From Candidatus Hydrogenedentota bacterium (lineage in GTDB: Bacteria > Hydrogenedentota > Hydrogenedentia > Hydrogenedentales > SLHB01), in assembly GCA_034408725.1 (NCBI GenBank), contig JAWXCN010000200.1, positions 2,871-66,870 on the forward strand: DNA of 64,000 nt, in the 5' to 3' direction. The notes below the pieces were generated by a model, which did not search any database, was not told the origin of the DNA, and saw only the letters and a program-made list of their open reading frames with translations. Positions 40,850 through 47,898 of this stretch are shown here, in pieces. The translations under genes and the position numbers were made by a program. Each line of letters starts with the position of its first letter. The first letter of the stretch is position 1.

Positions 40850-42193
40850 ATGTTTGACTCATTAAACAAAAAGTTGGAACGCGTCTTCAAGAACATTCGC
40901 GGTCAGGGAAAACTGACCGAGAAGAACATGCAGGACAGCCTCCAGGAAATCCGGGTGGCGCTGCTCGAAGCCGATGTTAACTATAAGGTAGTCAAGCAGT
41001 TCATAGCGGACGTGCAGGAGCGCGCGCTCGGTCTGGAAGTACTCGAAAGCATCCAGCCGGGGCAGTTAATCGTCAAGATTGTCCACGATGAGCTGGTGAA
41101 GATTATGGGCGGGGCGAATGCTCCGCTGAAGCTGGCGCAGACGCCGCCAACCGTGATTATGATGGTGGGGTTGCAGGGTCAGGGTAAAACGACCTCGTCC
41201 GGCAAGCTGGCGTTACATTTGAAGAAACAGGGGCGGCACCCGCTAATCGTTGGCGCGGACGTATACCGTCCCGCTGCCATCAAGCAGGCCGAAGTGGTGG
41301 CGCAACAGGCGGGCGCCGAGTTTTTCAGCCTTGGCGCGAATGCGGACCCCGTCGATATCTGCGTGATGGCGAAGGGCGAAGCGCAGATGCGCGGCTGCGA
41401 CATCATCATTCTGGACACGGCGGGCCGATTGCACGTGGACGGTGAGATGATGGCGGAAGTCCGGCGGATTCAGTCGCAAGTGCAGCCGCACGAGATTCTG
41501 TTTGTGGCCAATGCCATGACGGGTCAGGACGCGGTGAATTCCGCGAAACAGTTTAATGATAATTTGCCGCTGACGGGCGTGATATTGACGCAGCTTGATG
41601 GCGACGCGCGCGGCGGCGCGGCAATCAGTTTGATCAGCGTTACGGGTTGCCCAATCAAGTTTGTGGGCACCGGCGAAAGGCTCGATGCGCTTGAGCCGTT
41701 CCATCCGCAGCGGATGGCGGACCAGATTCTCGGCATGGGCGACATCGTTTCGCTGGTCGAGAAGGCGCAGCAGGTTGTCGATCAGGAACAGGCGATCAAG
41801 TTTCAGCAGAAGGCCAAGAAGGGCGAGCTGGACCTTGAGATGTTTTTGGAGCAGATGCAGCAGGTGAAGAAGATGGGCAGCATCGGCGATTTGGTGAAGA
41901 AGATTCCGGGCATGTCGAAGTTGTTGCCTGAGGGCGCGGAACTGCCTGAGGATGAATTGAGATATACGGAAGCGATCATCCGCTCGATGACGCGCAAAGA
42001 GCGGAAGAACCCGAAGATTATCAACGGCAGCCGGCGATTGCGGATCGCGGATGGCAGCGGCACTTCGGTCCAGGATATTAATCGTCTTCTCAAGGATTTC
42101 GAGAAGATGAAGAAGATGATGCAGCAGATGCTGAAGGGCGGAAAGCGCGGCGCGTTCGCGCGCGGTATGCGACCGCCTTCGATGTTTGGGTGA
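40850..42193 (+). CDS. ffh: Signal recognition particle protein Ffh
   Basis: N/G domain GLQGQGKTTSSGKLA, DTAGRL, LTQLDGDARGGAA, and a Met-rich M domain. Confidence 0.95.
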   Translation: MFDSLNKKLERVFKNIRGQGKLTEKNMQDSLQEIRVALLEADVNYKVVKQFIADVQERALGLEVLESIQPGQLIVKIVHDELVKIMGGANAPLKLAQTPPTVIMMVGLQGQGKTTSSGKLALHLKKQGRHPLIVGADVYRPAAIKQAEVVAQQAGAEFFSLGANADPVDICVMAKGEAQMRGCDIIILDTAGRLHVDGEMMAEVRRIQSQVQPHEILFVANAMTGQDAVNSAKQFNDNLPLTGVILTQLDGDARGGAAISLISVTGCPIKFVGTGERLDALEPFHPQRMADQILGMGDIVSLVEKAQQVVDQEQAIKFQQKAKKGELDLEMFLEQMQQVKKMGSIGDLVKKIPGMSKLLPEGAELPEDELRYTEAIIRSMTRKERKNPKIINGSRRLRIADGSGTSVQDINRLLKDFEKMKKMMQQMLKGGKRGAFARGMRPPSMFG

Positions 42194-42198
42194 AAAGA

Positions 42199-42287
42199 GG
42201 GTTTAGGGTTTAGGGTTTAGGGTCTAGCGAAAAGACGATTACGTGTTGTGATCGAACGAGACCCTAAACCCCAGACCCTAGACCCTA
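42199..42287. repeat. Inverted arrays of four GGGT(T/C)T(A/G/C) heptamers (G-quadruplex motif and long hairpin)
   Basis: Plus strand GGGTTTAGGGTTTAGGGTTTAGGGTCTA (42199-42226). Complementary C-rich array agaccctaaaccccagaccctagaccctat (42259-42287). GGGTTTAGGGTCT (42213-42225) is exactly complementary to 42259-42271. Confidence 0.85.
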
Positions 42288-42326
42288 TCGTGGAACCGAA
42301 AAACACAGAAACGATAGGAGATAGTA

Positions 42327-42590
42327 GTGGCAACAGTAATTCGATTGCAGCGCGGCGGGCGCACGCACGCGCCGTACTACCGGGTGGTGGTGATGGATTC
42401 GCGCAACCGCACGCGCGGAACGATTGTCGAGCAGATCGGCACGTATCACCCGTGCGCGCGCCCCGAGCCGACCACGGACATTGATGCCGAGAAGGCCATC
42501 GCGTGGTTGAAGAAAGGCGCTCAGCCGTCGGAGACAGTGCGTTCGGTGCTCACGAAAAAGGGCATCATCGCGCAGTCCAAGCAGGGCTAG
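42327..42590 (+). CDS. rpsP: 30S ribosomal protein S16
   Basis: VIRLQRGGRTHAPYYRVVVMDSRNRTRG. GTG start with AGGAG 6 nt upstream. Confidence 0.9.
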   Translation: MATVIRLQRGGRTHAPYYRVVVMDSRNRTRGTIVEQIGTYHPCARPEPTTDIDAEKAIAWLKKGAQPSETVRSVLTKKGIIAQSKQG

Positions 42591-42598
42591 GTTTCAGC

Positions 42599-42841
42599 AT
42601 GCAGCCGCAAATGAAAGAGTTGGTTGAGTTCGTCGCGAAGAAGCTCGTGGAGCATCCCGAGGATGTGAACGTCCGCGTGATAGAGAACGATGAAGGCCAG
42701 TTGATCGAGCTGCGCGTACACCCCGAGGACATGGGGAAGGTGATCGGCAAGAGCGGCAAGACGGCGCGGGCGATTCGCTCGCTGCTGATGTCCGCGTCCA
42801 CGAAGTCGACCACGCGCGCGGTACTGCAAATCGTCGAGTAA
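42599..42841 (+). CDS. KH-domain RNA-binding protein (YlqC/UPF0109)
   Basis: LVEHPEDVNVRVIE...VHPEDMGKVIGKSGKTARAIRSL. Conserved position between rpsP and rimM. Confidence 0.8.
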   Translation: MQPQMKELVEFVAKKLVEHPEDVNVRVIENDEGQLIELRVHPEDMGKVIGKSGKTARAIRSLLMSASTKSTTRAVLQIVE

Positions 42842-47874: not shown

Positions 47875-47898
47875 ATTTTGGATTTTAGATTTTGGATT
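47875..47898. repeat. Tandem heptamer ATTTT(G/A)G x3 plus partial unit
   Basis: attttgg attttag attttgg att, starting 7 nt after the TPR gene stop. Confidence 0.8.

Follow-up and report, generated by a model that had tools for sequence, protein, structure and literature searches.

The nearest printed description of the gene-less form of element analysed here is that of Rehm et al. (2015; PMC4692102), who reported G-rich heptamers, GGGNATC and GGGGA(C/T)T, in Xanthomonas and Nostoc. These repeats show a preference for four units and a strong intergenic bias, and form G-quadruplexes (G4) in vitro, with no function found; they lie at most 50 bp after stop codons on the coding strand, and before open reading frames (ORFs) on the non-coding strand (PMC4692102). 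Inverted copies may form stem-loops that compete with G4, and there is extensive variation of unit and length at the same site among close relatives (PMC4692102). Between ffh and rpsP of a Candidatus Hydrogenedentota bacterium, in a window of 64,000 nucleotides (the whole stretch of DNA analysed), is an element whose 7-nt unit likewise has a G3 tract, with four units in each arm, the G-rich arm just past a stop on the coding strand and the other arm ahead of an ORF. Different are the phylum and the unit (GGGTTTA/GGGTCTA), and whereas Rehm et al. took G4 as the defining property and made no link to a four-helix-bundle protein, the common feature here is the inverted architecture.

PF05635 genes, which have a part in what follows, occur in cas loci (PMC3936711) and, as S23p/PF05635 ORFs, in the 23S rRNA intervening sequences (IVSs) of Coxiella burnetii and Leptospira, which are closed by a ~28-bp stem of terminal inverted repeats (Warrier et al. 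2016, PMC4990558). The Coxiella stem contains tandem GACAGAT heptamers and is cleaved mid-way by RNase III (PMC4990558). Similar in length is the ~28-bp stem of the window element, full-size relatives of which carry PF05635 in the loop; unlike an IVS, the window copy lies in an mRNA spacer rather than in rRNA, it has no ORF, and its cleavage is proposed here by analogy. The 23S gene fragment of this genome (C151) has no large insert.

Tandem 7-bp repeats also occur as hairpins in operon spacers in the STRR sequences of heterocystous cyanobacteria, which have other units (CCCCAGT and others). Vioque is said to have described in 1997 STRR sequences inside the RNase P RNA gene. For the STRR hairpins of operon spacers, for example that of hupS–hupL, roles in transcript stability or translational coupling have been proposed (PMC2670836). 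In Geobacter metallireducens, runs of four or five heptanucleotides (GGGACCG; MTYCTGA) make up multicopy elements that are intergenic in housekeeping operons (Aklujkar et al. 2009, PMC2700814), some of them drawn as strand-switching hairpin pairs (PMC2700814). Unlike the present elements, they are annotated as putative regulatory RNA or global-regulator sites, and some of the copies are intragenic.

With REP/REPIN sequences and MITEs, the element and its relatives share a short, gene-less, palindromic, intergenic and multicopy nature, a frequent position after stop codons and presence/absence differences among relatives. They differ in that the copies have no single arm sequence in common, that their cores are unrelated, that the arms are tandem arrays and not one conserved palindrome, and that no target-site duplication was visible by eye at the copies inspected. 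The plant-type telomere repeat, to which the array was likened in an earlier, sequence-only reading of this DNA, has a 7-nt unit (TTTAGGG) identical to that of the window, and the head-to-head layout resembles a telomere–telomere fusion. This is a resemblance only: the array sits inside a bacterial operon, with no sign of telomerase or of a linear replicon, and its unit is only one of several GGGTNTN types, a series that passes gradually into GGGTATC, GGGTTTC and others.

Architecture of the ffh–rpsP element

Upstream of the element, on the plus strand, is ffh (40850–42193, 447-aa ORF, stop TGA at 42191–42193), which encodes the signal recognition particle protein; the relatives of this Ffh at 70–92% identity are Candidatus Hydrogenedentota, which gives the phylum of the host. 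Five nucleotides (AAAGA) lie between the stop and the left (5′) arm (42199–42226), so the G-rich arm begins 6 nt past the stop. It consists of three GGGTTTA units followed by one GGGTCTA. Next is a core of 32 nt (42227–42258) without an ORF, in which an inner 7-bp hairpin (CGATTAC/GTGATCG) is formed at 42236–42254, and then the right (3′) arm (42259–42287), which reads in the units AGACCC, TAAACCC, CAGACCC, TAGACCC and TA, is complementary to the left arm and G-rich on the non-coding strand, and ends 39 nt ahead of the rpsP start. The 39-nt rpsP leader (42288–42326) contains the Shine–Dalgarno sequence AGGAG (42316–42320), outside the stem. The gene for ribosomal protein S16, rpsP (42327–42590, taken from the ORF list, with 52–90% identity to relatives by tblastn), has a GTG start at 42327 and is followed by a KH-domain gene, rimM, trmD and rplS.

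The sequence at 42199–42287 is exactly as the sequence-only reading had given it, with inverted GGGTTTA-type arrays between the two genes, both of which are detected by TRF. Sequence and fold also confirm the pairing proposed there: 42213–42225 is the exact reverse complement of 42259–42271, giving 13 perfect base pairs, and the remainder of the ~28-bp stem pairs partly by G–U. When as many as 3 mismatches are allowed, the 17-mer GGGTTTAGGGTTTAGGG has 6 matches in the 64-kb window against 0.01 expected from shuffles. Folding of the plus-strand RNA of 42190–42300 gives −54.9 kcal/mol, where shuffled sequences average −27.4 (z = −7.67, none of 200 shuffles as good), with a predicted outer stem of 14 + 13 pairs, several of them G–U; the minus-strand RNA folds somewhat more weakly (−49.5 kcal/mol). 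The repeat hairpin between ffh and rpsP is far beyond chance. Real, too, is the formal G4 motif that had been pointed out on the G-rich arm, composed of four G3 tracts with 4-nt loops, which is borderline-positive by G4Hunter (left arm 1.25, right arm −1.38).

Contigs from four microbial-mat metagenome runs were aligned to the site. The element is identical in three of the runs, whose spanning contigs, which cannot reveal rare variants, hold neither filled/empty nor length variants; the contigs of the fourth run break at the array. The runs identified for the source mat are all DNA metagenomes. Of the sampled words of the RNA runs examined for the organism, only 4–7% matched, which is too little for this organism.

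The spacer in relatives and the regulatory readings

Across 55 Hydrogenedentota relatives, the ffh–rpsP spacer is anywhere between 9 and 349 nt long, with unrelated contents that vary even within the genus, so that the conservation upstream of rpsP which the sequence-only reading had suggested looking for is not found. Spacers shorter than 30 nt, present in about 15 of the 55, imply that co-transcription is ancestral and could not accommodate a switch. Four genomes of the same genus were compared, and no two agree at the site. An unrelated spacer of 276 nt is present in G046 (= L016, Ffh identity 92%), a long hairpin without repeats (−43.8 kcal/mol) in G085 (92%), and a spacer of 45 nt with no hairpin in G075 (= L017, 87%); neither G046 nor G075 has a heptamer array anywhere in its genome.

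In the fourth, G005 (Ffh identity 90%), the same site holds a hairpin of −42.5 kcal/mol, in which the units GGGTATA, GGGCATA, GGGTATA and GGGTATA are separated by 21 nt from GATACCC, CATACCC, AATACCC and CATACCC. One unit position that reads T in the window reads A here, and the partner position differs to match in all four units; the 21-nt core is not alignable with the 32-nt core of the window. Either the two arms of an ancestral element have evolved in concert, or colonisation of the site has happened twice; in both cases pairing has been preserved, and sequence not. At other orthologous intergenic positions, an element present in one of G005 and G000 is missing from the other or replaced by different filling, with cases filled in G005 and empty in G000. 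The comparisons show that the element entered, or was remodelled in, the short ffh–rpsP spacer within the genus. Other repeat-armed hairpins lie directly after the ffh stop in several more distant relatives, with octamers (AATTGAGT)n in L036 and ATCCCCCTTG-type arms in L018–L022.

The terminator or attenuator function suggested in the sequence-only reading finds no support in the surrounding sequence. No hairpin-plus-T-run terminator is present in 41700–42700, the sequence after the stem being CGTGGAACCG, and the same interval, including the segment between stem and rpsP, has no sigma-70-like promoter; a search against Rfam gave no relevant match at E ≤ 1. Because there is neither a T-run after the stem nor a promoter-like site before rpsP, the essential downstream genes would have to be transcribed through the element.

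These observations bear on the proposal that the element is a switch between hairpin and G4 in the ffh 3′ UTR and rpsP leader, tuning termination or read-through into the ribosomal-protein operon. The long hairpin and the G4 motif on which that proposal was built both exist, and a dedicated read-through switch is not supported. Consistent with a switch are the four G3 tracts with short loops, the presence of exactly four units per arm in both the window and G005, and the related GGGNATC heptamers, which form G4 in vitro, favour four units and lie within 50 bp of stops (PMC4692102). Also, the G-rich arm would be transcribed ~60 nt ahead of its complement, so that a transient RNA G4 is kinetically possible. 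Against it stand the lack of conservation of the element at this site even inside the genus, the missing T-run and promoter-like site, and the spacers of 9–25 nt in relatives, which imply obligatory read-through. At equilibrium, moreover, a hairpin of −54.9 kcal/mol should prevail over a three-tetrad G4, sister elements of the same architecture use units incapable of G4, and Rehm et al. found no regulatory role for their heptamers (PMC4692102). We regard such a switch as very unlikely. As units without G-tracts (GGATTTT, TCGTGC, CAGTTGT) give the same architecture, G4 is not the common property of the class; a transient co-transcriptional G4 on the GGGTTTA arm is possible on kinetic grounds, and the G4 potential of this arm is incidental, a by-product of the unit type rather than the basis on which the class works. 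As a control of rpsP the element lacks conservation, and it should not be annotated as a terminator, a riboswitch or a telomere-like sequence.

Repeat-armed hairpins in the genome and around PF05635 genes

Dozens of period-7 arrays, of 2–17 units each, are dispersed over the genome assembly (5.17 Mb in 280 contigs, 57% GC). They fall into two main heptamer families, GGGTATC/GGGTTTC/GGGTTCC/GGGTGTC/GGGTCTA and GGATTTT/AGATTTT, with GGGTCTA units intermixed with GGGTATC units in arrays other than that of the window. Further arrays are octamers, nonamers and hexamers (TCGTGC/TCGTAA), the last often nested inside outer heptamer arrays. The genome-wide search for arrays, as had been recommended for GGGTTTA, places the ffh–rpsP element as one of dozens, in all gene-orientation contexts. 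About half of the arrays are solitary, one of them being the (ATTTTGG)3 array of the GGATTTT-type family detected by TRF just past a stop codon in the window (47875–47898, plus strand; C200:50750–50768), which has no inverted partner within 700 nt.

Short tandem arrays with periods of 6–9 form some 41 inverted pairs, nearly all of them intergenic; the cores they enclose are 27–560 nt long and mutually unrelated. The polarity of the pairs, that of the ffh–rpsP element included, is invariant: in 14 of 14 paired GGGT-type and 19 of 19 paired RGATTTT-type arrays it is always the same arm that is 5′, whichever strand is read, with no case of the opposite arrangement. This argues against random inverted duplication of microsatellites, which would yield both arrangements.

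A neutral, strain-specific microsatellite had been named in the sequence-only reading as the outcome that would undo it; such a repeat would have arisen by replication slippage, with no structure-related origin. Heptamer simple repeats are over-represented in bacteria, with slippage proposed as the cause (PMC4692102), and the wide range of array lengths and the many solitary arrays would suit such an origin. The paired arms speak against it, since complementary arrays 32 nt apart pair unit for unit, as does the fixed polarity over ~18 paired heptamer elements (none in opposite orientation). Equally contrary are the lack of length variation in three metagenome runs, the linkage of the arms to one gene family and the conservation of a mixed-unit 31-mer in three other genomes, both described below. 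A microsatellite origin is extremely improbable.

Paired elements are found between co-directional, convergent and divergent genes (divergent in 7 of ~38), so that they are not restricted to the 3′ ends of genes, and in co-directional gaps about 15 of 18 are nearer to the upstream stop than to the downstream start. In a test of strand asymmetry based on G–U pairs, with crude gene calls, the sense strand folds better in about 12 of 20 paired elements, so that selection acting on the RNA is not generally supported. Only 69 of 3,659 gene ends in this genome have a canonical hairpin-plus-T-run terminator, and an unconventional 3′-end structure accordingly remains a live rival. The hairpin would then be adaptive, as a terminator without a T-run, a pause site or a protective 3′ stem that separates the mRNA levels of ffh and of the much more highly expressed rpsP operon. 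In keeping with this, strong and unrelated hairpins occupy the spacer in many relatives (L018–L022, L026–L029, L036 with its octamer arrays, L076 and G085), other 3′ structures may serve where canonical terminators are so few, the co-directional elements favour the upstream stop, and a gain in transcript stability has been proposed for the STRR hairpins of the hupS–hupL spacer (PMC2670836). In the opposite direction point the roughly 15 of 55 relatives whose spacers have no space for a hairpin and so need none, the absence of the element from the nearest relatives, and the paired elements between divergent genes; a protective 3′ stem would also favour ffh over rpsP, the reverse of the expected expression ratio. 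Weighing these points, we think an adaptive intercistronic hairpin rather unlikely.

Enclosed by repeat-armed hairpins are five of the seven matches in this genome to PF05635 (bAvd), the four-helix-bundle family that also goes by the name of 23S rRNA intervening-sequence protein; C255 is unarmed, and the remaining match, C118, is at a contig end, where arms cannot be judged. The arm units around these genes are GGGTTCC/GGGTATC, GGATTTT, TCGTGC or 9-mers. Among 13 other Hydrogenedentota genomes, significant inverted tandem arms flank 32 of the 40 PF05635 genes sampled (~80%), against 2 of 200 similar-sized control genes that attain the same alignment score. Of the 20 best matches, 19 have arms with a period of 7, and the units are very diverse (GGGTCGA, CAGTTGT, GGGACTA, CAGTGGC, AGCGTCT, CAGGAGT, GAATTAC and others). 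Among 121 genomes of the phylum, arrays of the (GGGTNTN)n type are distributed patchily and occur in 34.

In Verrucomicrobiia, Acidobacteriota and Planctomycetia, the homologues with ~60% identity are flanked by arms of (GGGTTTC)n, (GGGTTCA)n and (GGGTTTA/GGGTATA)n. These cassettes sit between housekeeping genes, one of them between the genes for a MoxR-type AAA ATPase and a DUF58 protein, and the four such loci with called genes are all co-directional with their neighbours; cassette orientations derived from edge ORFs were dropped, as they are unreliable in GC-rich DNA and contradicted the called genes at L155. An HMM made from 120 close homologues was run over the gene-less cores in search of PF05635 remnants, and with this narrow profile only C161 and, weakly, C67 scored, of which C67 carries a truncated remnant. 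Searches of the literature gave no publication that deals directly with both PF05635/TIGR02436 and repeats.

The repeat unit follows the protein. Over 160 pairs, which are not phylogenetically independent, protein identity and unit distance are correlated (Spearman −0.65), the mean unit distance being 1.5 at 60–70% protein identity and 3.15 below 50%. Well-supported small protein clades share a unit type; only these clades were used, because crude ORF extraction makes the unit-labelled protein tree noisy, several of its long branches being wrong ORF picks. That unit similarity tracks protein similarity indicates that gene and arms move and diverge jointly. A different origin, healing of double-strand breaks or telomere-like addition by a host-specific activity that adds repeats to both broken ends, was rejected: the unit follows the gene lineage across phyla, and not the host.

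The association between unit and protein could also mean that the arms, as DNA or RNA, are binding arrays. The heptamers would be putative sites of a PF05635 pentamer made in trans, for example the 128-aa product of C254, a gene flanked by GGGTTCC/GGGTATC arms, and the ffh–rpsP hairpin a non-autonomous site. Unit type does co-vary with protein lineage, units stay within ~1–1.5 mismatches at 60–70% protein identity and across phyla (GGGTTTC is common to L161 and L154), and the period is 7 irrespective of the sequence. In a sample of 24 genomes, array-rich genomes have about 7.8 PF05635 matches and array-free ones about 2.6. The same survey, however, includes an array-rich genome (G117) with no PF05635 match and several array-free genomes that have some, and many arrays are solitary. 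Co-inheritance alone suffices for the correlation, whose pairs are not independent, and the supporting tree suffers from the crude ORF extraction. For the window element itself, the protein-binding array is decidedly unlikely.

Relation to gene-bearing cassettes and putative role

The right arm of the window element, AGACCCTAAACCCCAGACCCTAGACCCT, is identical at 28 of 28 positions to the right arm of G006:C115 and of its orthologue G054:C129, both of which flank a PF05635 gene. G006:C115, which belongs to another family, is a cassette enclosing an intact PF05635 gene, and the mixture of GGGTCTA, GGGTTTA and GGGTCTG units in the window is typical of another family, f3. Extended by its TATC flank, the arm gives a 31-mer present in three other genomes (G006, G054 and G077), representing two further genera; it recurs there at non-orthologous loci, G077:C71 and G006:C54 (and in G054). 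The 28-mer identity between genomes could stem in part from the small alphabet of units.

What marks a cassette, a PF05635/bAvd gene between the arms, is lacking in the window element, and its core has no visible similarity to the core ends of G006:C115. As no PF05635 remnant is present in the 32 nt, descent from a gene-bearing copy by deletion is something that we infer; alternatively, the hairpin may have come first, as the primary unit, with the PF05635 gene as a later passenger. The ffh–rpsP element is filed here as a gene-less miniature relative of the PF05635 cassettes, not as a full cassette.

With confidence a little above even, we read the element as a gene-less, miniature representative of the dispersed 7-nt-array hairpins, the full-size members of which carry the PF05635/bAvd gene, and as a co-transcribed stem that is tolerated and plausibly an RNase III site. 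Spacers as short as 9–25 nt in relatives make co-transcription of ffh and rpsP probable, which would place the element within their mRNA. There, according to the predicted fold, a stem of ~28 bp would close the core, and it may be cut or bound in the manner of the stems of ORF-bearing 23S rRNA IVSs. A gene for RNase III is present in the genome. The resemblance of the stem to the RNase III substrate in those IVSs makes a processing or stability site likely, and one effect of such an intercistronic site would probably be to uncouple the ffh and rpsP parts of the transcript. The host would tolerate the element rather than require it.

More tentatively, each PF05635 pentamer lineage may recognise its own 7-nt unit, with the gene and its inverted arrays colonising rRNA helices and operon spacers, and with gene-less copies as non-autonomous forms acted on in trans, all being parts of one widespread system. 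Possible rather than probable, such a protein–repeat system is still an unproven reading; if true, its interest would be well above that of the locus.

The locus itself is of little importance, being a lineage-specific insertion and not a conserved control of signal recognition particle or ribosomal-protein genes; its value is that of a well-resolved data point for an under-described class. The data join G4-forming heptamer repeats, cyanobacterial STRR hairpins and 23S rRNA IVSs, a joining that we have not found in print, and the link to the arms offers a concrete hypothesis for the function of PF05635, a large family of unknown role.

Eight GGGT-type arrays lie at contig ends in this assembly, oriented as if the partner arm were beyond the break. 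Heptamer arrays break short-read assemblies, a practical point for the quality of metagenome-assembled genomes.

Heptamer arrays and assembly breaks

At the ends of contigs of the genome that contains the window (G000) are tandem heptamer arrays, the longest with 17 units (C47:230, C110:171, C114:124, C127:1, C11:6966, C100:11624 and C189:14868), oriented as if a partner arm lay beyond the break. The short-read assembly of this genome appears to have been fragmented by heptamer-array elements.

The four-helix-bundle genes (PF05635/bAvd family) enclosed by full-size heptamer-armed hairpins have homologues of about 60–70% identity in Hydrogenedentota, Acidobacteriota, Verrucomicrobiota and Planctomycetota, as seen in the homologue match list, and many homologues are located on very short contigs of 0.5–2 kb. 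This distribution over four phyla, together with the short contigs, is consistent with horizontal spread and repeat-induced assembly breaks.

Solitary, layered and mismatched arrays

Within the window, 7 nt downstream of a stop codon, is an (ATTTTGG)3 array (47875–47898). It is a member of the GGATTTT heptamer family, inverted pairs of which form 10 elements elsewhere in the genome; no inverted partner of the window array was found within 700 nt.

Four loci in G000 (C22:28995–29100, C12:10330–10610, C235:20261–20550 and C110:1–700) are built of concentric array layers, with (GGGTATC)n outermost, followed inwards by (TCGTGC)n, (TCGTAA)n and the core, and with the mirror order on the other side. 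Certain layers lack a counterpart on the opposite side, and the order of the layers seems to be constant. In the same-genus genome G005, the left arm of the element at L104 (C2:32400–32700) is a (GGAGACA)n array and its right arm is a differing heptamer array, (GAAACCC)n; these arms are non-complementary, and not all array pairs are hairpins.

The ffh–rpsP spacer and transcription termination

G000 contains, at C165:16580–16615, a dispersed palindromic repeat of a second kind, ATTCCCCCTTTGAAGGGGGAT(C/T)(A/T)AGGGGGATGTT. In five relatives from other genera (L018–L022), a long hairpin in the ffh–rpsP spacer has this repeat as its arms; the repeat is a further hairpin family common to several genera. 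At the site held by the heptamer hairpin in the window, the same-genus genome G085 (L097) has a hairpin containing the motif GTCATTCCGAGCGAAGCGAGGAA(TC), also observed in the core at C121:35176–35447 of G000, and this hairpin looks like another widespread small palindromic repeat. The spacer of the closest full-length relative, G046 (L016), carries an unrelated 276-nt insert, starting ...ATGAAGTGTCATGGC..., inside which there may be a candidate small ORF.

Classical hairpin-plus-T-run terminators are scarce in G000, being detected at 69 of 3659 predicted gene ends versus 26 of 3643 control regions. Transcription termination may depend on signals of another kind in this phylum.
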